From IMG/VR virus record IMGVR_UViG_2778261571_000007: a stretch of DNA of 12,976 nucleotides, one strand, 5' to 3'. This document shows positions 1 to 12,976 of this stretch, piece after piece (the first letter of the stretch is position 1; every line of letters begins with the position of its first letter). The notes beneath the pieces were generated by a model that saw only the letters and a list, made by a program, of their open reading frames with translations, searched no databases and had not been told where the DNA came from. Position numbers and translations under genes: made by a program. The DNA comes from a virus. Taxonomy: Duplodnaviria > Heunggongvirae > Uroviricota > Caudoviricetes.

Positions 1-28
1 AGGGACAGCTGATAGAAACAGAAGCCAC
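1..28 (-). CDS. insA: InsA (IS1) 5' fragment, cut by the window edge
   Basis: The reverse complement of 2-28 reads GTG GCT TCT GTT TCT ATC AGC TGT CCC, i.e. M-A-S-V-S-I-S-C-P, the InsA N-terminus. A GAGG Shine-Dalgarno lies upstream on the minus strand. Confidence 0.75.
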
Positions 29-83
29 TGGAGCACCTCAAAAACACCATCATACGCTAAATCAGTAAGTTGGCAGCATCACC
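1..83 (-). mobile_element. IS1 insertion sequence, terminal 83 bp (insA-proximal end), element continues leftward past the window edge
   Basis: Bases 1-83 are the reverse complement of the IS1 end as I recall it (GGTGATGCTGCCAACTTACTGATTTAGTGTATGATGGTGTTTTTGAGGTGCTCCAGTGGCTTCTGTTTCTATCAGCTGTCCCT), with one mismatch at window position 56. The terminal inverted repeat ends at 83 (...GCATCACC). Confidence 0.9.
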
Positions 84-1294: not shown

Positions 1295-2494
1295 ATGCCA
1301 TTTGTTATTTATGTGTTTACTATCAGTGCCTTTGCGCTCGGACTCGCGGAATTTGTCCCCATTGGGCTGACAGACGTTATGGCTCAGGGGTTGTGTGTGG
1401 GTGTGGAGCAGACCGGGGCAGCGGTTACAACCTATGCACTGGGGGCAACGTTCGCGGCACCCGTACTGTCTGCGCTGACAGCAAGCTGGAGCCGGAAAAA
1501 TGTAATGCTTACAACTGCCGTTGTGTTTACTGCCGGTAGTCTGGCGGCCGCGTTTGCAGCCACATTACCTCAGCTCCTGTTAGCGCGGTTCATTGCTGGT
1601 CTGGGACACGGCCTGTTTCTGGCTGCGGCATCCAGTACCGCAGCTCGTCTTGCTGGACCGGGTAAAGCAGGCAGAGCGGTGGCTGTGGTATTTGGTGGCT
1701 TTACTCTGGCGATGGCAATCGGCGTACCGCTGAGTACATGGTTGGGGGGGGTGGTCTCATGGCGTCCAGTTCTCGGCGCTATTGCCGCTTTTGGCGCGTT
1801 CGGATTCCTTGGACTGTTGTTCGGTATGAAAGATCCCGTACGCAGCGTGCCCGGTGAACATAGTGACTCAGCAATGCAGAATATCGGCATGCTGTTTAAC
1901 CGTAAGTTGCTGGCCGGCGCGCTGGTTACGGTGCTGGCGTATGCAGGCTCGTTTACGGATTACACCTTTATCGCACCTATTCTGACGCAGGTGACAGGGG
2001 TTACCGGAGCAACGGTGAGTCTGTTTATGCTGGTTTACGGTATTACAGCTGCGGTAGGTAATATTCTTGGTGGGAAACTTACCGACAGCATGGGGGTTAA
2101 TCGTGCCAATATACTCATCATTAGCGGCATTGTTGTTGTCGTGCTTGGTATGTGGCTGCTGTCATCCTCACCGGTGAGCATGGGCATTCTGGTTGCGCTG
2201 CTGGGTATGGTGACATTTGCCGCAGTGCCGGCACTGCAGGCCCGTCTGATTGGTGTCGCTGAGCAACATGCTCCTCATGCGCATGGTGTTGCTGCCGGCC
2301 TGAATATTGCGGGCTTCAACTCAGGTATAGCGCTGGGATCAGTACTGGGCAGCATTACTATAAGCCACGCCGGTATCGTGTATACCGGTATCAGCGGTGC
2401 GATTGTTTCTCTGCTCGGCCTGCTGTTGCTGCTTGCACAAATCCGTCGCAGCCACAGTCGTAAATTTCAACAGGTTAAAATCGTAGGCCAGTAA
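1295..2494 (+). CDS. MFS transporter, DHA1-type efflux pump (SotB/YdeA/NepI-like), 399 aa
   Basis: The protein is highly hydrophobic with a 12-helix-like pattern. It has an N-terminal EFVPIGL motif and a loop G(x)GKAGRAVAVVFGGFTLAMAIGVPL that align to the SotB-type sugar/purine efflux family. A GGAG Shine-Dalgarno lies 8 nt upstream. Confidence 0.88.
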   Translation: MPFVIYVFTISAFALGLAEFVPIGLTDVMAQGLCVGVEQTGAAVTTYALGATFAAPVLSALTASWSRKNVMLTTAVVFTAGSLAAAFAATLPQLLLARFIAGLGHGLFLAAASSTAARLAGPGKAGRAVAVVFGGFTLAMAIGVPLSTWLGGVVSWRPVLGAIAAFGAFGFLGLLFGMKDPVRSVPGEHSDSAMQNIGMLFNRKLLAGALVTVLAYAGSFTDYTFIAPILTQVTGVTGATVSLFMLVYGITAAVGNILGGKLTDSMGVNRANILIISGIVVVVLGMWLLSSSPVSMGILVALLGMVTFAAVPALQARLIGVAEQHAPHAHGVAAGLNIAGFNSGIALGSVLGSITISHAGIVYTGISGAIVSLLGLLLLLAQIRRSHSRKFQQVKIVGQ

Positions 2495-2505
2495 AGGGAG
2501 GTTAT

Positions 2506-3198
2506 ATGCTTACCCGTGAAAATATGCTTAATGGCACATTTGTCAGGGTGCATGAAGCGCTGCTCCCGGCGAATATGCTCTGGGACGCTGAAAAAATACG
2601 CGCATCAATGAACTCTACTCTGGAGGAGCGCCCGACGGGTGCTCCTGTCTGGATATTTGCCTACGGGTCATTGATGTGGAATCCCGTGCTGGCGATTGAA
2701 GAAATGCAACGGGCCCGTCTGAAAGGATTGCAGCGCAGTTTCTGCATTCGTTTGATATCCGGACGAGCGACTCCTGATGTCCCCGGCAGGATGTTATCGC
2801 TCGACGAAGGTGGAATTACCGAAGGTATTGCGTTCAGACTGCCGGAATCGACTCTTATTAATGAGCTGGAAATTGTCTGGACGCGCGAGATGATAACCGG
2901 TCTTTACCGTCCGGTCTGGGCAGACGTTTCGCTAGGAAACGGTGAGGAAATTCAGGCGCTGGCTTTCGTATCAGACAGACTGCATCCGCATTATGAACAG
3001 GACAATCTTACAGCGACCGTAGCGTTGAGCATCGCATCTGCCCGTGGAGACATTGGCACGAATGCAGATTATGTATGGAAACTGCAGGCCACTCTGGGTG
3101 CGTTGGGAATACGGGATGATTACGTGAGTGAACTGGCCCTTGCTCTGCATGAGGCTCCCTGTAACGATAAACTTCATCAGCGAGGCGCTTCACTATGA
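2506..3198 (+). CDS. ChaC-like gamma-glutamylcyclotransferase (glutathione-specific GGCT family), 230 aa
   Basis: The translation carries the hallmark YGSLMWNP motif and aligns along its length to E. coli ChaC as I recall it (e.g. PVWIFAYGSLMWNP, FC(I/L)RL, GRMLSLDEGG, WTREMITG). A strong AGGGAGG Shine-Dalgarno lies upstream; the gene starts 12 bp after the MFS stop. Confidence 0.85.
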   Translation: MLTRENMLNGTFVRVHEALLPANMLWDAEKIRASMNSTLEERPTGAPVWIFAYGSLMWNPVLAIEEMQRARLKGLQRSFCIRLISGRATPDVPGRMLSLDEGGITEGIAFRLPESTLINELEIVWTREMITGLYRPVWADVSLGNGEEIQALAFVSDRLHPHYEQDNLTATVALSIASARGDIGTNADYVWKLQATLGALGIRDDYVSELALALHEAPCNDKLHQRGASL

Positions 3199-4076
3199 GC
3201 CATCTGAGCCATCTGCGAACGTTTCTTGAGGCCTATCGCTCTGGCTCCTTTTCAAAGGCGGCAGAACTACTGGGCATCACTCAGCCCGCGGCGTCACAGC
3301 ATATCCAGTCTCTTGAGACTCTGGTTGGTAAGCGTCTGTTTATCAGGCAGGCCAGAGGCGTGACGGCAACCGAAGCTGCGGATGAGCTTGCCCGCTCAGT
3401 TTCACCCTTCATTGATGGTCTGGAAGAAAAGCTGTCCTCTTTCCGGTCAGGCTCTGTACGCGGGGGAACAATTAATCTGGCAGGACCGCCAGATTTTATT
3501 CATTCCCGGCTTGGGACAGTAATGGCTCCACTAATGAAGGAGGGGTATCGCCTACGCTTTCATACCGGCAATAAGCAACGTATTTATTCCCTTTTGCATG
3601 ACGGGAGCGCCGATCTCGCTGTTACCGCATCTATGCCTGATGACCGTCTGTACGGCTATGCACATCTACTGACTGAACGCATGCTCCTTGTTCATGCTCC
3701 CGCCATGTCAGAGATCATCGGATCAGAACCTGGTGCTGAAACGCTTGCCTCATTACCGCTGATTGCTTATGACGAAGAGTTGCCACTGATTAGAGCGCTC
3801 TGGGCCTCCATGTTTCAGAGAGCCCCTGAGATGCAGGCTACATTCACCATTCCGGATTTACGTATTATCCGCGACTTGGTCTGTGACGGCCACGGGTGGA
3901 CAGTGCTGCCGGATTATCACTGTGACAATGACCTGAAAAGTGGTCGCCTGATTTCAGTGACACCTGCAGACCTCGCTCCGACTAATCATCTTTATCTGGT
4001 CTGGAACAAAAGGACGGCTAATAACAGCCGAACCGCCTATGTTCGGGATTACATTCTTAAAACGTTTCCGCGTTGA
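3195..4076 (+). CDS. LysR-family transcriptional regulator, 293 aa
   Basis: The N-terminus has the LysR helix-turn-helix signature (LRTFLEAYRSGSFSKAAELLGITQPAASQHIQSLE), and the length and C-terminal domain are typical of the family. The start codon overlaps the ChaC-like stop (ATGA), implying co-transcription. Confidence 0.9.
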   Translation: MSHLSHLRTFLEAYRSGSFSKAAELLGITQPAASQHIQSLETLVGKRLFIRQARGVTATEAADELARSVSPFIDGLEEKLSSFRSGSVRGGTINLAGPPDFIHSRLGTVMAPLMKEGYRLRFHTGNKQRIYSLLHDGSADLAVTASMPDDRLYGYAHLLTERMLLVHAPAMSEIIGSEPGAETLASLPLIAYDEELPLIRALWASMFQRAPEMQATFTIPDLRIIRDLVCDGHGWTVLPDYHCDNDLKSGRLISVTPADLAPTNHLYLVWNKRTANNSRTAYVRDYILKTFPR

Positions 4077-4120
4077 TGTTTGAAACGGATGATTGGCGAT
4101 GCGTATCATAAGTTACGTAT

Positions 4121-4150
4121 GTCCGCTTCTGGCACAAAGCAGACGCCCAC
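4121..4150. repeat. Copy A of a 30-bp imperfect direct repeat (GTCCGCTTCTGGCACAAAGCAGACGCCCAC)
   Basis: 24 of 30 positions match copy B at 7794-7823 in the same orientation. It lies in the convergent intergenic gap between the LysR gene and the DUF2254-like gene. Confidence 0.6.
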
Positions 4151-4206
4151 TCTCACGCGAATGCTTTGCCCTTGACTTGCCAACAACCGTATCGCTTGCT
4201 CCGCAA

Positions 4207-5484
4207 CTATGGTTTTTTATTAGAATCTTCGCCACTAAATAAATTATAATAAATTGATTTTATTAGATATCTGTCAGAATCTATATGGTCAGCACGAGTA
4301 GCATGCTCTAATGTTTCAAATGCTAGGGTTTGTGCGGCTTCAGCAAAAATTCCAGGCCAACCCTTACTCAGCATCGACAGTCCTTTAAGTACCCTTATCT
4401 GAATTTCCCTCATACTGGCACCATCGCGCGCAACAGGTGAGAAAAAGTCTTCAAGTAGATCGTTATTCTGAAGTGGTGCAACATGTACAGAAGGATATTT
4501 CACTTCTATTTCATCAGATTTATTCTGCGCGTAAGCGGAAAGTATACGTACACCTCTGCCAATGACATCAATGGCGGTTCCAGGATCGTTCACTGCGGGG
4601 GAAAGGGCTCGGCAGGCTATTTCGGCCATGACGCTAAGACAAAATCGGGGGTCCTGAGCAAATGAACGTACATCCGAGACAATAATCGTCTCAAGTAAAT
4701 CGGTGCTGATTGATGACTCCTGGCCCTGACTCAGGTACAAAACTGGCGTGGACGGATGTATGAAACTGCCCGGCTGCGCCACGAGGTATACATGACGGGG
4801 ATCATTGGTCAGCAGCTTGCTGAGTTTCACCATATCAACATATTCAACATAGCCAATCTTTTTCGGATAAACTGCAACCGTTCCTTTCGGCTGTTCATTG
4901 TTCTCAAGCCATGGATATCCGCCGAGACAGGGATTTCTTGCTCTCGCAATAAATGTTTCGATGGCCGCCTGTTCTACTTTTGCCGTTGTCTCACCAACCC
5001 TCCCCAGAGAGGTCAAATGCTGTATCCAGCGAAGCAATGTGATGAGGATTAAGGCAATGACAACCAGTGTTACAATGAATAAAATGACTCTCCCCCTTTC
5101 TCCATAAGCTCCCATATTGAGGGCAATAATCCCTACCAGACTGAAGAGAAAAGAACCGATGAAGGTGGCCAGTACATTTTGTGTGGTGACGTCTTCAACA
5201 ACTAAACGAGTAGCTCTGGGAGTCACATTAGTAGTGGCTGAACCGTAGGCTGTGACCATGATGCTCAGCGAAAATGTGGTCACTGCCAGCATACTCGATG
5301 CCAGTATGTTCAGAATGTTATCGACTGCTTCCGCACCAACCTTCACGGAAACCGACTCAGGTATCATTGATTTAAAAAGAATTGATAAAAGGGCCGTTAT
5401 TATTGCGACAATTGCGAATAACGTTGCCCTGAACCATAGTTTTTTAAATGTCTGCTTCAGCATCCATTTCCAGCGTGAAATCAT
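4207..5484 (-). CDS. Integral membrane protein with a large C-terminal soluble domain, DUF2254-like, about 425 aa
   Basis: A long ORF with N-terminal transmembrane segments and a conserved-looking SPAVNDPGTAID motif. The start is probably the ATG at 5482-5484 (GAGGGA Shine-Dalgarno 9 nt upstream); the ORF track's ATG at 5499 has no Shine-Dalgarno. The family assignment is from memory and moderately certain. Confidence 0.8.
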   Translation of the reverse strand: MISRWKWMLKQTFKKLWFRATLFAIVAIITALLSILFKSMIPESVSVKVGAEAVDNILNILASSMLAVTTFSLSIMVTAYGSATTNVTPRATRLVVEDVTTQNVLATFIGSFLFSLVGIIALNMGAYGERGRVILFIVTLVVIALILITLLRWIQHLTSLGRVGETTAKVEQAAIETFIARARNPCLGGYPWLENNEQPKGTVAVYPKKIGYVEYVDMVKLSKLLTNDPRHVYLVAQPGSFIHPSTPVLYLSQGQESSISTDLLETIIVSDVRSFAQDPRFCLSVMAEIACRALSPAVNDPGTAIDVIGRGVRILSAYAQNKSDEIEVKYPSVHVAPLQNNDLLEDFFSPVARDGASMREIQIRVLKGLSMLSKGWPGIFAEAAQTLAFETLEHATRADHIDSDRYLIKSIYYNLFSGEDSNKKP

Positions 5485-5509
5485 TCTGCATTCCCTCATA
5501 TTGCAGCCG

Positions 5510-5541
5510 GGATAAATAAATGCCGCCTCTGTGGCGGCATG
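5510..5541 (-). terminator. Rho-independent terminator downstream of the BetT-like gene
   Basis: On the minus strand: ATGCCGCC-ACAGA-GGCGGCAT (8-bp GC-rich stem) followed directly by TTTATTTAT, starting 7 nt after the BetT-like stop. Confidence 0.7.
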
Positions 5542-5547
5542 TTGCTG

Positions 5548-7551
5548 TTAACGAACCAGATGCAGGAAGTGCAGGTGTTTTTCGTACTGGTCCAGTATGT
5601 CATTAATCAGCTGTTCCTGATTCCAGCCCATTACATCATAATTTTGGCCGCCCTCTTTGAGATAGACTTCAGCGCGATAATATCGATGTTGTTCACTCTG
5701 CTGCTCATCATTATCCAGCGCAGCGAGCGCGAAGGTCGGTGAGTTATACCCGCGAAGCCTCACTTCATATATATAATTCAGCTCGTTGCCCAAATCGACT
5801 TCAAGGCGAATACGATCCTCGGCGGCGTCACTGATGTGGCTTATCGTTCCCTGCTTGTTAAGTTCCTCCTGAACCAGCGTCATGGCGGGTTGGATAATGT
5901 CGTCCATAAAACGTTTCACAAGAGAGCGCTTCGGCAAATACGCGATATTGCGTAACCTTCTCTGCCAGGGAATTGGGTTACGTGCAGCCGTAGGAGCAAT
6001 AGTCGCCATGCTAAGGCTTTCACGTTTGGTCAAATCCCGACGCAGGGCTTTTAACAGTCCGTATATGGATATTAATAAGATAACTGAGAAGGGCAATGCA
6101 CTCGCTATCGTTACGGTTTGCAACGCACTCAGCCCCCCTGCGATCAGCAGGGCAATAGCAACAACGCCCATGAGCGATGCCCAGAAAATTCGCTGCCAGA
6201 CGGGCGTGTTTGCCACCCCACCTGATGCCAGAGTATCCACAACCATTGCCCCCGAATCAGCAGACGTTACAAAGAAGACGATGACCATCGCCATTGCAAT
6301 GAATGACAGCACGGAAGAGAACGGGAAATGCTCCAGGAAATTAAACAGGGCAAGCGCAACATCCTGCTGAACGGTATTGGCGAGGTCAGTGGCGCCCTGG
6401 TTCATGATGAGATAGATGGCGCTGTTTCCAAACACCGTCATCCACATGAGCGTAAAGCCGGCGGGAACAAACAACACGCCAGTCACGAACTCACGAATTG
6501 TCCTGCCGCGGGAAACGCGTGCAATGAACATACCTACAAACGGCGACCATGAAAGCCACCATCCCCAGTATAATAATGTCCAGCCCCCCAGCCAGTTGCT
6601 CGACTTGGGTTCATACGCGTAAAGGTTGAACGTTTTACTCACCAGTTCCGACAGATAACCACCCGTATTTTCCACAAATGACTTCAGCAGAAGCACAGTG
6701 GGACCCAGGCACAAGACCAGCGCCAGGAGCAACACCGCCAGGCCCAGATTAAGCTCAGACAGGATGCGTATTCCCTTGTCCAGGCCGGACACCACCGAAA
6801 TCGTCGCTAACCCCGTGATGACCACGATCAAAATGACCTGTACCGTTTCATTGATGGGCACGCCGAAAAGATGGTTCAAACCGGCATTCACCTGCAATAC
6901 ACCGTAACCCAGCGATGTTGCAACGCCAAAGACAGTGCCTATCACGGCGAAGATATCAACCGCGTGGCCTATAGGCCCGTAAATGCGATCGCCGATAATG
7001 GGATAGAGCGCAGAACGCAGCGTTAAAGGCAGACCGTGACGGTAACTGAAAAAGGCCAGAATCAGCGCCACGATGGCATAAATTGCCCATGCGTGCAGAC
7101 CCCAGTGGAAGAACGTCAGGCGCATGGCTTCCTTCGCTGCCGCAACGGTCTCTGGAGTGCCGACAGGTGGCGAAAGATAATGCATCACAGGTTCGGCAAC
7201 GCCAAAGAACATCAGGCCGATCCCCATCCCTGCCGAAAAAAGCATCGCGAACCAGGAGTGGTAGCTGAAATCAGGCTGCGCATGGTCTGGGCCCAGCTTT
7301 ATATCACCGTAACGTGAGAGTCCAAGGAACGTGACGCTCAGTAAAATCAGGGCCACAGCAAGTATGTAGAACCAGCTGGCATTCGTGAAGATTTGTTGCT
7401 GAAGTAGTTTAAAATTTTTGTCGGCGACATCCGGGAATACGGCGGCAAAGGCGACAAGAAGGAAAATTAGCAAAGCAGATGTAAAGAATACCGCTTTGTT
7501 AATCTGGCTTGTAGACTTCTTTGGGGTTGTATCATTTTCACTCATAATCAT
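5548..7551 (-). CDS. BCCT-family transporter, BetT-like (choline/betaine/carnitine family), 667 aa
   Basis: The translation aligns throughout with E. coli BetT as I recall it (e.g. KLGP(E/D)..P(E/D)FS..SW.AMLF.AG.GI.LMFF.VAEP, WSPFVG(M/L)F(I/L)ARISRGRTIR(E/Q)FV, VTSADSGA) and includes a long C-terminal cytoplasmic tail. No betI/betB/betA genes are adjacent. Confidence 0.9.
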   Translation of the reverse strand: MIMSENDTTPKKSTSQINKAVFFTSALLIFLLVAFAAVFPDVADKNFKLLQQQIFTNASWFYILAVALILLSVTFLGLSRYGDIKLGPDHAQPDFSYHSWFAMLFSAGMGIGLMFFGVAEPVMHYLSPPVGTPETVAAAKEAMRLTFFHWGLHAWAIYAIVALILAFFSYRHGLPLTLRSALYPIIGDRIYGPIGHAVDIFAVIGTVFGVATSLGYGVLQVNAGLNHLFGVPINETVQVILIVVITGLATISVVSGLDKGIRILSELNLGLAVLLLALVLCLGPTVLLLKSFVENTGGYLSELVSKTFNLYAYEPKSSNWLGGWTLLYWGWWLSWSPFVGMFIARVSRGRTIREFVTGVLFVPAGFTLMWMTVFGNSAIYLIMNQGATDLANTVQQDVALALFNFLEHFPFSSVLSFIAMAMVIVFFVTSADSGAMVVDTLASGGVANTPVWQRIFWASLMGVVAIALLIAGGLSALQTVTIASALPFSVILLISIYGLLKALRRDLTKRESLSMATIAPTAARNPIPWQRRLRNIAYLPKRSLVKRFMDDIIQPAMTLVQEELNKQGTISHISDAAEDRIRLEVDLGNELNYIYEVRLRGYNSPTFALAALDNDEQQSEQHRYYRAEVYLKEGGQNYDVMGWNQEQLINDILDQYEKHLHFLHLVR

Positions 7552-7793
7552 TTATTCCATTAATTAAATCCGCACTGGATAGAAGGTACTACCTCTCACA
7601 GAGTAGCAAAGTTCAACTGGCTATGCGGGGTTAATCGGAATGCATGGTGGAATGAGTGCCGATACAAATCATCCTATATTCTAAGGAGTTTTAAGTTACT
7701 CAGCCTGCCAATTACTGGGGCATTTAATTTGTATGATCTGTATCAAAGCTGGGATATAAGTTAAGTGAAGTATATTAGGCACGAATTACCAGC

Positions 7794-7823
7794 GTCTGCT
7801 CTTGGCACAAAGCGGACAACCAC
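7794..7823. repeat. Copy B of the 30-bp imperfect direct repeat (GTCTGCTCTTGGCACAAAGCGGACAACCAC)
   Basis: Matches copy A (4121-4150) at 24 of 30 positions. It lies between the BetT-like start and the end of the phage 140-aa gene. Confidence 0.6.
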
Positions 7824-9490: not shown

Positions 9491-9916
9491 TCAATGCACA
9501 GCCACAATATTTCCTGCAGGGCCACCACGATTCATCTGGTTGAAACCAGCGATCGCCACTGCGACAAAATCATCAGCGTCTCTCACCAGTCGTTCCCGCG
9601 TCTCCACTAGTTCCCGAAAATAGGCTGAGCTATGGCTGCGCATTCGGGCCACCAGCAGAGGTGGCATTGCTTTTTCGATAGCTGGTAACAACGCCTGAAT
9701 TTTTTCAACTGCATCAGGGGTGTCTTTCTCTACCCAGCGGAAAATTTTCTGGGTATTGCGAGCCAGGGCTTCCGGATGGCTGTCGTCATACAGTTCTGGG
9801 AACGTCATACCCAGTTCAAAATAAGCCCTGGTTATTTCAGCTGCCGGAACTTTTTCACCGTCCGGATGCGCCCAGGCATTCATCGCCATGCGGATGTGTT
9901 CATGCTTGATTTTCAT
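9491..9916 (-). CDS. YdaT-like protein (lambdoid CII-position gene of Rac-type prophages), 141 aa
   Basis: The position directly after the Cro-like gene and before the replication gene, and the length (141 aa), match ydaT of Rac-type prophages. AGGAG Shine-Dalgarno 8 nt upstream. The start overlaps the 3' end of the upstream gene by 17 bp. Confidence 0.65.
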   Translation of the reverse strand: MKIKHEHIRMAMNAWAHPDGEKVPAAEITRAYFELGMTFPELYDDSHPEALARNTQKIFRWVEKDTPDAVEKIQALLPAIEKAMPPLLVARMRSHSSAYFRELVETRERLVRDADDFVAVAIAGFNQMNRGGPAGNIVAVH

Positions 9917-10181
9917 GAATCAAGCTCCTAGAAAGTGGTTGTGTTAACATTTTGGTATCTTCCAGCTCGGGCCAAATATTCATCCAATCAAAAGGCCTTA
10001 GTTGCTGACGTGTAACTTCACCATTACTGGCTCGCTCAATAAGGACACATAACGATGCCCCTAACACTTGACCTTTACTCAATGCCTTTCTTAGATAACC
10101 GATGCTGGTACCACACTCGCATGCAAACATACGCTGTTCATCTGACGAAAGAGAATTGAGAAATATTCTTAATTCTTCCAT
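9900..10181 (-). CDS. Cro-like helix-turn-helix regulator (YdaS family), 93 aa
   Basis: Divergent from the repressor gene. It contains a helix-turn-helix-like segment ...CGTSIGYLRKALSKGQ... followed by GEVTRQQLRP, typical of the YdaS/Cro-like family. AAGGAG Shine-Dalgarno 7 nt upstream of the ATG at 10179-10181. Confidence 0.7.
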   Translation of the reverse strand: MEELRIFLNSLSSDEQRMFACECGTSIGYLRKALSKGQVLGASLCVLIERASNGEVTRQQLRPFDWMNIWPELEDTKMLTQPLSRSLIHENQA

Positions 10182-10204
10182 AGCTACTCCTTAGTAAACA
10201 CAGC

Positions 10205-10286
10205 AAAGAATACCCATAGGTAAACAAAAGTCAATACCCACAGGTTGTTTACCTTGCAGTAATCGCATCTATTATTTACCTATGGA
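10205..10286. promoter_or_regulatory. Divergent immunity-region promoter/operator (OR-like): repeated TACCCA(T/C)AGG / AGGTAAACA motifs with candidate promoter elements on both strands
   Basis: TACCCATAGGTAAACA at 10211-10226; TACCCACAGGTTGTTTACC at 10235-10253; TTTACCTATGG at 10275-10285, overlapping the repressor start codon. Minus-strand -35 TTGACT (plus 10229-10234) and -10 TATTCT (plus 10207-10212) with a 16-bp spacer precede the Cro-like gene. Plus-strand -10 TATTAT at 10270-10275 ends 6 nt before the repressor ATG. Confidence 0.6.
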
Positions 10287-10701
10287 CAAATATGAATTTA
10301 GACGACAGCAACTCATCAAAATTCGTGATGAGAAATGCGATGGTAAAGCGGTTAACGTGGCCAGAAAGATCGGGCGCGAGCCTTCTTATGTATCAAGAAT
10401 GTTGTACCCAGAGGGGAAAAAGGGAAAAAAACGGATCGCTGATGATATGGTGGAGATTATCGAAGAGTCCTTTGGGTTACCCCGGGGATGGATGGATGGT
10501 ATCGTTTCATCATCAACGAACACAGCCTCCAGTTATGAAACAAGGGTTCTAACGCCACGACAACGTATTTTTTTAGATCTCTTAGACGAACTGCCAGAAA
10601 GTGAAGCGGATAACTTATTAAAAACTCTTGAAGAGAAAAAACAGTATTACAATATGATCTACGAAGAAATCCGTAAAAAGAAAGCACAAAACGCATCATA
10701 G
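10282..10701 (+). CDS. Prophage repressor, RacR/CI-position gene, 139 aa
   Basis: Divergent from the Cro-like gene and flanked on both sides by the same operator-like motif. It has a putative helix-turn-helix segment (AVNVARKIGREPSYVSRML) and an acidic C-terminal domain. No Shine-Dalgarno is present, which is consistent with a leaderless transcript. Identity with RacR is inferred from synteny, not sequence recall. Confidence 0.7.
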   Translation: MDKYEFRRQQLIKIRDEKCDGKAVNVARKIGREPSYVSRMLYPEGKKGKKRIADDMVEIIEESFGLPRGWMDGIVSSSTNTASSYETRVLTPRQRIFLDLLDELPESEADNLLKTLEEKKQYYNMIYEEIRKKKAQNAS

Positions 10702-11100: not shown

Positions 11101-11256
11101 ATGCAAAAAATCGACCTCGGCAACAACGAATCCCTGGTGTGCGGCGTGTTCCCCAACCAGGATGGAACGTTCACTGCCATGACGTATACCAAAAGCAAAA
11201 CATTTAAAACCGAAACTGGTGCGCGCCGATGGTTGGAGAAGCACACAGTAAGCTAA
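11101..11256 (+). CDS. Small phage ORF, 51 aa (YdaF-position)
   Basis: ATG at 11101. Translation: MQKIDLGNNESLVCGVFPNQDGTFTAMTYTKSKTFKTETGARRWLEKHTVS. Size and position match ydaF of Rac. The Shine-Dalgarno is weak. Its 3' end overlaps the convergent sieB stop by 4 bp. Confidence 0.45.
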   Translation: MQKIDLGNNESLVCGVFPNQDGTFTAMTYTKSKTFKTETGARRWLEKHTVS

Positions 11257-11741
11257 CGATTAAAACGTCTACTCCTGCTGTTCCAGAATAACTTCATAAA
11301 ATGGGAGTATTTTTCGGTGACGAGATAATAAGAACAGTTTGCGCTATCACTCTGATGTTGAATGATGCCCTTCCGTTCTAATTTTTTCATAACCGGGTTA
11401 CGGCAAGGAGAAGTGATAATAAGATTTCCTGTTTTAAGGAAATCTTTAAATACAGCGATTTCTTTCTCAGATAAACGAAGCAATACTCGTTGCTCTGGTA
11501 GTAATGAATAATGCTTTTGAATATGTGCTCGCAATCTTGAGAAGGAAATGGCGACCACGAAAGAAAAGGCAAAAACGATAATCTGAAAGAGCCAAGGCAT
11601 TTCAGTATAAGCATTGAATGCGACAGTAAACTCTTTCGGTATCAGCCAGAGAGTGAGACCAAAAATGATAATCGTATACATAAGTCTTTCGAGTGGCTCG
11701 TTAGCAAAAAGTTTCAACAATGGAGTAAATACATCCAACAT
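11253..11741 (-). CDS. sieB: Superinfection exclusion protein B (SieB), 162 aa
   Basis: Begins MLDVFTPLLKLFANEPLERLMYTIIIFGLTLWLIP and has two transmembrane segments with a basic C-terminal part, the SieB family pattern. Start is the ATG at 11739-11741 with a GAGAG Shine-Dalgarno. The 266-aa ORF in the track is an unsupported upstream extension of this gene. Confidence 0.75.
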   Translation of the reverse strand: MLDVFTPLLKLFANEPLERLMYTIIIFGLTLWLIPKEFTVAFNAYTEMPWLFQIIVFAFSFVVAISFSRLRAHIQKHYSLLPEQRVLLRLSEKEIAVFKDFLKTGNLIITSPCRNPVMKKLERKGIIQHQSDSANCSYYLVTEKYSHFMKLFWNSRSRRFNR

Positions 11742-11958
11742 ATCAATAACTCTCAACTGTAAGGGTATTGAAATGTTAACACAAGCTCTCGCTGTAGGGG
11801 TATAGCCGAGACCACCGAAGCCCGGAGGTGGTGAAATAAAACCGGGCACAACACGAAGGCGCATTTCCGATATCCATAAAGAGTCGGTCTTGTCTGTTAA
11901 ATTTAAATGGTGGAGTGCGCCTCCGGTTGTAAATAACGACATTGCTGTGTGTAGTCCT

Positions 11959-12009
11959 GGCGGCATCAGTTTTTTTCTTGAAGTTCGGCTGATGTCCGCC
12001 CTTTTTAAA
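11959..12009 (+). terminator. Strong hairpin (11-bp stem with one bulge, 19-nt loop) followed by CTTTTTAAA; candidate intrinsic terminator or regulatory RNA structure between sieB and kilR
   Basis: GGCGGCATCAG at 11959-11969 pairs with CTGATGTCCGCC at 11989-12000, followed by CTTTTT at 12001-12006. Confidence 0.4.
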
Positions 12010-12181
12010 GTGAATTTTGTGATGCGGTGAATGCGGCTAAGCGCACGTGGCACAGTTAAAAGTCATGTTAGTCCTTATTGGTTTGGGTGGGAAAGCCGAC
12101 TGTAATTGTTAACTGGTTGCAGTCACCTGGAGGCACCAGGCACCGCATCAACAAAGTTCATTTGTAAAAATGGAGATAATT

Positions 12182-12403
12182 ATGATTGCACATCACTTCG
12201 GAACTGATGAAATACCACGTCAGTGTGTGACTCCTGGCGATTATGTTCTTCATGAAGGCCGGACATATATTGCCTCGGCAAACAATATTAAAAAGCGAAA
12301 ACTATATATTCGTAACCTGACCACAAAAACATGCATTACTGACCGCATGATTAAAGTCTTCCTCGGTCGTGATGGTTTACCTGTAAAGGCGGAGTCATGG
12401 TGA
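12182..12403 (+). CDS. kilR: KilR-like cell-division (FtsZ) inhibitor, 73 aa
   Basis: ATG at 12182 has a GGAGA Shine-Dalgarno 5 nt upstream; the ORF-track start at 12170 lies inside that Shine-Dalgarno. The length (73 aa) and position (next to sieB, followed by the small zinc-finger ORF and the RacC-like gene) reproduce the Rac order kilR-ydaE-racC. The sequence [14 protein letters not shown]... is consistent with my recollection of KilR. Confidence 0.7.
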
Positions 12404-12573
12404 TGACTAAGAAAATAAAATGTGCTTACCACCTTTGCAAAAAAGACGTTGAAGAAAGCAAAGCTATTGAAAGAATGCTTCACTTCATGCACGGGATTTT
12501 ATCAAAAGACGAACCGAGAAAATATTGCAGTGAAGCTTGTGCCGAAAAAGACCAGATGGCACATGAACTTTAA
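12397..12573 (+). CDS. Small zinc-finger-like protein, 58 aa (YdaE-position)
   Basis: The start ATG at 12397 overlaps the kilR stop (ATGGTGA), implying translational coupling. It has four Cys arranged CxxxxC...CxxxC (KCAYHLC ... YCSEAC). Translation: [58 protein letters not shown]. Confidence 0.6.
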
Positions 12574-12647
12574 TTAATTGACTATTCGAAACTGAATTTA
12601 TGCCAGAAATGGCAGGTATTCGCTCAACCTTAATTAAGGAGAAAAAC

Positions 12648-12944
12648 ATGATTACCAATTATGAAGCCACTGTTGTAACTACCGATGACATTGTTCACGA
12701 GGTGAATCTGGAAGGAAAGCGCATTGGCTACGTAATTAAAACAGAAAATAAAGAAACCCCATTCACTGTGGTTGATATCGATGGTCCATCAGGCAACGTA
12801 AAAACACTTGATGAAGGTGTCAAAAAAATGTGCCTGGTGCATATCGGAAAGAATCTGCCCGCAGAAAAAAAAGCCGAATTTCTGGCAACTCTAATTGCAA
12901 TGAAATTAAAAGGTGAAATCTGGGTGATGCTGCCAACTTACTGA
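12648..12944 (+). CDS. RacC-position phage protein; native coding sequence runs to 12922 and the last 7 codons plus stop are supplied by the IS1 inverted repeat
   Basis: Strong AAGGAG Shine-Dalgarno 6 nt before the ATG at 12648. The reading frame enters the IS1 terminal repeat at 12923, which then encodes VMLPTY and the stop. The native portion is about 91 codons, the size of RacC. Confidence 0.6.
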   Translation: MITNYEATVVTTDDIVHEVNLEGKRIGYVIKTENKETPFTVVDIDGPSGNVKTLDEGVKKMCLVHIGKNLPAEKKAEFLATLIAMKLKGEIWVMLPTY

Positions 12945-12976
12945 TTTAGTGTATGATGGTGTTTTTGAGGTGCTCC
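12923..12976 (+). mobile_element. IS1 insertion sequence, first 54 bp (insA-proximal terminal repeat), element continues rightward past the window edge
   Basis: GGTGATGCTGCCAACTTACTGATTTAGTGTATGATGGTGTTTTTGAGGTGCTCC matches the IS1 terminus as I recall it. The insA GTG start would lie just past the window end. This copy is inverted relative to the copy at 1-83. Confidence 0.9.

Follow-up and report, generated by a model that had tools for sequence, protein, structure and literature searches.

The Rac kil region and its phage relatives

The closest described counterpart of the locus analyzed here lies in the Rac prophage of Escherichia coli K-12, where KilR is toxic to the cell through its inhibition of FtsZ (and of MreB) (PMC12482147, PMC5793797). 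The K-12 gene is held silent by RacR repression together with Rho/NusG termination, and it is induced when the small RNA OxyS lowers NusG during oxidative stress (PMC5793797), while KilS, encoded in the kilR 5' UTR, has been verified in K-12 by northern blot (PMC8175672). [quoted passage not shown]

Lambdoid phages also carry kil regions of this kind. In Rac-SA53, phiSTEC1589-Stx1c and Shigella phage 75/02 Stx, an exonuclease VIII (recE-type) gene follows downstream of kil, as it does in Rac. The three are mosaic in composition: ydaE is missing from 75/02 Stx although kil is present, and both Stx phages have an unrelated 128-aa ORF in the place of racC. This ORF stands directly upstream of the exonuclease VIII gene, at 1752-2138 and 1587-1973 of the two Stx phage loci, and the slot in front of recE can be described from these sequences as mosaic. 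Since 75/02 Stx has the one gene without the other, the kilR-ydaE pair is not obligatory.

The stretch of DNA analyzed here (the window, 12,976 nucleotides) is the whole of draft contig NLNA01000058.1 (12,976 bp) of assembly GCA_002229155.1. Positions 12182-12922 of the window are the Rac prophage kilR-ydaE-racC and match many complete E. coli genomes at 100% identity. The perfect match extends over 823 nt (12100-12922) in many complete chromosomes, in which RefSeq labels the genes kilR, ydaE and racC. In a BLAST search with an 877-nt query, 1,735 of the 5,426 complete E. coli genomes covered at least 80% of the query in one place, and the early-left segment is essentially identical to that found in about one third of complete E. 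coli genomes. Alignment with Rac of K-12 MG1655 gave 99.7% identity over 1,182 nt. Reading of 11500-12976 together with the ORF listing showed three ORFs on the same strand, with good ribosome-binding sites, and comparison with K-12 kilR (b1352), ydaE (b4526), racC (b1351) and KilS (b4833) showed the same order, spacing and starts, the same orientation of sieB and the same stop/start overlap. The preliminary description of this DNA, which had read gene order, sizes and start sites as those of the Rac kil region and had proposed an alignment with Rac kilR-ydaE-racC, was therefore borne out, both against K-12 and against the other E. coli genomes that match perfectly.

The NCBIfam profile scores of KilR, YdaE and RacC all exceed their curated cut-offs, and the resemblance to Rac is thus not a matter of chance. 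Taken with the near-identity to K-12 and other E. coli, the neighboring sieB and the KilS match, these scores identify the block as the early-left segment of Rac itself, beyond a merely Rac-like one, and no observation speaks against this identification. We consider it about 90% probable that the region is an ordinary early-left segment (KilS/5' UTR, kilR, ydaE and racC) of a Rac-type prophage which, in this strain, has taken a simple IS1 hit in the racC stop codon. Nothing in the genes, in the order in which they lie, in the overlap or in IS1 departs from textbook knowledge of E. coli. Against K-12 Rac, the block differs in that IS1 has destroyed the racC stop, which gives a 98-aa RacC, and in that KilR has C51 in place of F51; the rest of the present Rac variant is unlike K-12: the immunity region is a different one, and an island of transporter cargo is present.

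kilR (12182..12403, + strand) has a GGAG 6 nt ahead of its start and encodes a 73-aa protein predicted to inhibit both cell division (FtsZ) and elongation (MreB); its coordinates agree with the RefSeq annotation in relatives. Its position is that of K-12 kilR, beside the divergent sieB and upstream of ydaE-racC. The suggestion that the 73-aa protein is KilR-like proved sound: it scored 161.5 bits against NCBIfam NF008465 (cut-off 92) over residues 1-73 of 73, Pfam PF27398 is on record for the protein of the present window, and 72 of its 73 residues are identical to those of K-12 KilR in alignment. The sole difference is F51C, and C51 is also the residue of the other Rac-type relatives examined, three phage homologs. 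We infer that inhibition of FtsZ and MreB carries over from the K-12 protein to this one.

Upstream, sieB (superinfection exclusion; 11253..11741, - strand; Pfam SieB, E = 1.6e-30) is the divergent neighbor of kilR, as in K-12 Rac, and RefSeq annotates it at these coordinates in relatives as a 162-aa protein. The kilR 5' UTR contains a homolog of the KilS sRNA (11912..12006, + strand) that is identical to K-12 b4833 at 95 of 95 nt and has a predicted fold (z = -2.9) with a hairpin at its end and UUUUU after it. The original annotation of the contig has a longer sieB of 229 aa (11253-11942), which runs antisense into the first 31 nt of the KilS match. An Rfam scan gave no match within 12182-12976, the window's one match being sok at 569-743.

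Overlap of kilR and ydaE

The kilR stop codon, TGA at 12401-12403, lies within ATGGTGATG (12397..12405, + strand), over three in-frame start candidates for ydaE: ATG at 12397, GTG at 12400 and ATG at 12403. Each of these overlaps or abuts the kilR stop, and a GGAG at 12391-12394 lies 2, 5 or 8 nt upstream of them, respectively. Because ATGGTGATG holds all three candidates, the kilR stop and the ydaE start overlap whichever start is used. RefSeq and K-12 place the start at ATG 12403, with a 1-nt overlap (TGATG), and this start gives a ydaE of 56 aa (12403..12573, + strand), a small protein with four cysteines and predicted zinc binding; from ATG 12397, the start chosen in the preliminary description, ydaE has 58 aa.

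The ATGGTGATG string is also found in K-12 and in Rac-SA53, and the Rac-SA53 record starts ydaE at the first ATG, which corresponds to an ATGGTGA overlap. phiSTEC1589-Stx1c has ATGGTGATA at this point, with ATA as the third candidate codon, and only the first ATG or the GTG is usable there. The absence of the RefSeq-start ATG from this phage favors the ATGGTGA reading, or the GTG within it. The kilR stop had been described earlier as overlapping the start of a small zinc-finger ORF at ATGGTGA, and an overlap is indeed kept in K-12, Rac-SA53 and phiSTEC1589-Stx1c. An upstream stop that overlaps or abuts a downstream start, with conservation of this arrangement in relatives, is the layout typical of translationally coupled genes, and ydaE is probably translated by ribosomes that have just ended at the kilR stop. 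The kilR stop and all candidate starts of ydaE fall within a palindrome, AGTCATGGTGATGACT, at 12393-12408. Folding indicated a possible 6-bp hairpin (AGUCAU/AUGACU) over the ydaE start codons, weak and not conserved in phiSTEC1589; such a hairpin could mask the ydaE starts until a ribosome completes kilR.

All 56 residues of YdaE are identical to those of K-12 b4526, which the K-12 record labels a zinc-binding protein. The protein scored 86.1 bits against NCBIfam YdaE_coli (NF041288; cut-off 35) and belongs to Pfam family PF27493, while matches to the Rtr1/RPAP2 zinc finger (weak) and to metallothionein in Pfam were sub-threshold. The four cysteines, C7, C12, C43 and C47 (CX4C...CX3C), are kept in the diverged homologs of Rac-SA53 and phiSTEC1589.

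The racC-IS1 junction and the contig ends

The third ORF of the block (12648..12944, + strand; AAGGAG 6 nt upstream) is a racC::IS1 chimera of 98 aa, in which the native RacC residues 1-91 are followed by WVMLPTY. Residues 1-91 are identical to RacC of K-12 and of E. coli C, and over these residues the protein scored 205.7 bits against NCBIfam NF007306 (cut-off 171). The RacC relatives available share more than 90% identity. Native RacC is 91 aa long and ends in KGEI followed by the stop, whereas the present ORF runs to 98 aa; it is a mutant allele of racC and not a member of another family.

Alignment with E. coli C and K-12 places the junction to the base. The native sequence reads AAA GGT GAA ATC TGA AAGAAATAGCCTGCG, and the window reads AAA GGT GAA ATC TG/G GTG ATG CTG CCA ACT TAC TGA, with the slash at the junction. 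Homology to IS-free Rac stops at 12922, and IS1 nt 1 is position 12923. The native coding part of racC ends at 12920, so that all 91 residues are kept and the stop codon alone is lost: at 12921..12923 (+ strand), the native TGA has become TGG, with IS1 nt 1 as its third base. IS1 then supplies six more codons (VMLPTY) and a stop, TGA, at IS1 nt 20-22. The preliminary description was exact in deriving the final seven codons and the stop from the IS1 terminal repeat. Its chimeric C-terminus is chimeric by virtue of IS1, but the change is an extension from 91 to 98 aa in which no native residue is replaced or truncated. The seven added residues are mostly hydrophobic.

The IS1 part of the window (12923..12976, + strand) is the left end of the element, nt 1-54, which comprises the left inverted repeat and the insA promoter region. 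Both the terminal inverted repeat and the adjoining left-end sequence are present, and 54 of 54 nt match the IS1A head of strain H7. The element points in the same direction as racC, and the window ends 2 nt before the GTG start of insA; a promoter-like CTGCCA-16-TATGAT lies within this left end at 12930-12957, just upstream of that start. From the usual 9-bp duplication of IS1, TGAAATCTG at 12914..12922 (+ strand) is the predicted near copy of the target duplication, and its far copy would be beyond the window.

A second IS1 left end, inverted, occupies 1..83 (- strand) at the other end of the window; its reverse complement is IS1 nt 1-83 except at nt 28, which is C and not T. Both ends of the window are thus IS1 left ends that face outward and are inverted relative to each other. 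The left junction is also present in complete genomes such as S171-1, as a simple insertion with a 9-bp duplication, CAAACAACG. The left copy as found in S171-1 differs from IS1A at seven positions, nt 28 among them, and the racC copy has the IS1A base at nt 28. Next to the left IS1 are the toxin gene hokD (419-574, - strand) and the sok antisense RNA (569-743, - strand; Rfam RF01794, 116 bits).

Since the contig runs into a multi-copy 768-bp repeat on either side, nothing about the DNA further on can be read from the point where the window stops. The contig would have halted where a short-read assembler was unable to cross the multi-copy 768-bp IS1 repeat, and the apparent end of the prophage at 12976 is a contig break and not a feature of its biology. 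The IS1 lengths retained are 54 nt and 83 nt, the nt-28 SNP making the left copy unique, and these lengths probably reflect a de Bruijn assembler with k = 55 at true repeat boundaries. The preliminary description had recE and recT severed from the block by the insertion; of this, what holds is the presence of at least an IS1 between racC and the DNA beyond it, as the window ends in IS1. In IS-free relatives, 101 nt separate racC from the genes that come next, recE-recT-ralR-rcbA-xisR-intR-ttcA, and recE comes directly after racC in every related complete genome examined.

The native sequence beyond racC contains a strong hairpin of 11 bp (ATAGCCTGCGC/GCGCAGGCTAT, -18.8 kcal/mol, z = -4.3) that lies 6 nt after the racC stop, at 6830-6854 of the locus of an IS-free relative; a T-run follows it on the opposite strand only. 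In the present strain, IS1 separates racC from this hairpin. Scanning of the + strand for consensus terminators did not reveal an intrinsic one for racC.

Origin of the insertion and the rest of the Rac variant

The combination of racC with IS1 at this position is rare. A 117-nt query across the junction had a spanning match in 0 of 5,426 complete genomes of E. coli, and a search of the species-representative genomes for the exact 41-nt pattern at the junction gave 0 matches. The 98-aa RacC has the accession WP_089632842.1 and is recorded for a single NCBI contig and a single Logan run (SRR3989754), and racC::IS1 is a private insertion allele, found in one or two samples, that joins known genes to a known IS. 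Strain H7, the top BLAST match with 100% coverage, was considered as a carrier of the junction and rejected, as its IS1 is a different one, inside kilR; OSUCMP42NDM was likewise rejected, its IS1 copies lying elsewhere.

Independent IS1 insertions in the kilR-racC block as such are commonplace. IS1 splits kilR in H7 (14167-14934 of the related locus) and in TUM10008 (~1762-2515), and in JX21CE35 two copies are present, the first upstream of kilR and the second in the ydaE-racC interval (~1530-2300 and ~2770-3540), all of these in complete E. coli genomes. The insertions in H7, TUM10008 and JX21CE35 involve the same element (IS1A-type, 54 of 54 nt) and the same target block of ~0.8 kb as the present one. 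Those in H7 and TUM10008 split kilR, whereas the present insertion, in the racC stop, leaves all three ORFs intact. The recurrence of such insertions could reflect a hot spot or selection against KilR toxicity.

IS1 inserted between the second and the third base of the racC stop, most likely as a simple insertion that duplicated 9 bp. Beyond its right end, TGAAATCTG, AAAGAAATAGCC and recE would then follow, and recE would begin ~878 nt (768 + 9 + 101) beyond the old racC stop, as against 101 nt in the native arrangement; the window itself includes neither the right IS1 end nor a second duplication copy nor recE. An IS1-mediated rearrangement, in which racC has been truly severed from recET and the integrase end of the prophage by an adjacent deletion of recE-recT...intR or by inversion of the 12.8-kb segment, appears unlikely. 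The two IS1 copies are inverted, an arrangement in which recombination inverts the intervening DNA and which replicative intramolecular inversion also leaves behind, and the far side of the racC copy is beyond the window. However, the copies differ at nt 28 (C versus T), and the left one is an old and simple insertion that has its own 9-bp duplication and is common to complete genomes in which racC-recE is intact. Since both of these features mark the racC copy as an independent insertion and not as the product of replicative inversion, replicative inversion from the left IS1 was rejected. The constant position of recE after racC among the related complete genomes examined also argues against a deletion, of which there is no positive sign. 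A later inversion of the 12.8-kb segment, by homologous recombination between the inverted copies, could have occurred and would look the same in a short-read contig. It is barely credible that the junction is an artefact of assembly in which Rac reads were wrongly joined to an IS1 k-mer: the contig does end in a multi-copy repeat, assembly is at its least dependable in such places, and IS1 is present for 54 nt only, but the independently built Logan assembly of SRR3989754 has the same junction base for base, and the break falls exactly at IS1 nt 1, with retained lengths such as a k = 55 de Bruijn assembler would probably leave.

What a simple insertion would do to the block can be considered in the light of the K-12 work on Rac, by which the block would normally be silent and be expressed under oxidative stress. 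KilR would then block FtsZ and MreB, and RacC would block the retron toxin RcaT that RecE would otherwise trigger. In the present strain, kilR and ydaE are untouched by IS1. Insertions of IS1 are classically polar on downstream transcription, and by analogy this one would reduce the transcription that reaches recE-recT-ralR-rcbA-xisR-intR. IS1 lies exactly between the members of a linked blocker-trigger pair, racC and recE, which is a mildly interesting angle, yet the allele is private. We regard it as very unlikely that the insertion is functionally meaningful, by way of the hydrophobic seven-residue tail of RacC and a RacC cut off, transcriptionally or physically, from RecE, or by way of the inverted IS1 12.8 kb away. 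If it were, the interplay of retron and prophage in this strain would be changed, or the segment would be invertible or mobile.

It is likewise highly improbable that the insertion is adaptive, either in uncoupling the blocker RacC from the trigger RecE or in silencing recET and the excision genes, or that the 12.8-kb segment, with its transporter cargo and kil block, is a composite transposon. The description of racC-recE as a linked pair acting on retron toxin-antitoxin systems and the recurrence of IS1 in this block in other strains would agree with adaptation, and the IS1 ends that bracket the segment would agree with a transposon. Against adaptation, the allele is confined to one or two samples and gives no sign of spread or selection, and IS1 prefers AT-rich DNA, a preference with which the recurrent insertions are consistent. 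The composite transposon was rejected because the 12.8-kb segment occurs as a unit on 0 of 72,556 plasmids and because the left IS1 has its own target duplication in S171-1. A simple insertion into the racC stop remains our preferred account. The practical value of the finding is in annotation hygiene, in that a 98-aa "hypothetical protein" is RacC with its stop knocked out by IS1; even this matters little, as the chimeric protein is already in RefSeq under the accession given above.

Outside the kil block, the window contains a cargo island (1295-7551) that encodes an MFS transporter, a ChaC-like gamma-glutamylcyclotransferase, a LysR regulator, a DUF2254 protein and a BCCT/BetT transporter and that is absent from the stretch of K-12 Rac examined. 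Its DUF2254-BetT part (~4119-7818) matches plasmid segments from Klebsiella and E. coli at 99.8-99.9% identity. The immunity/regulatory region (9491-10701) differs from racR-ydaS of K-12, and it encodes a 139-aa protein on the + strand whose C-terminal part is weakly DicA-like, a 93-aa regulator that is divergent from it, and a member of the YdaT family.
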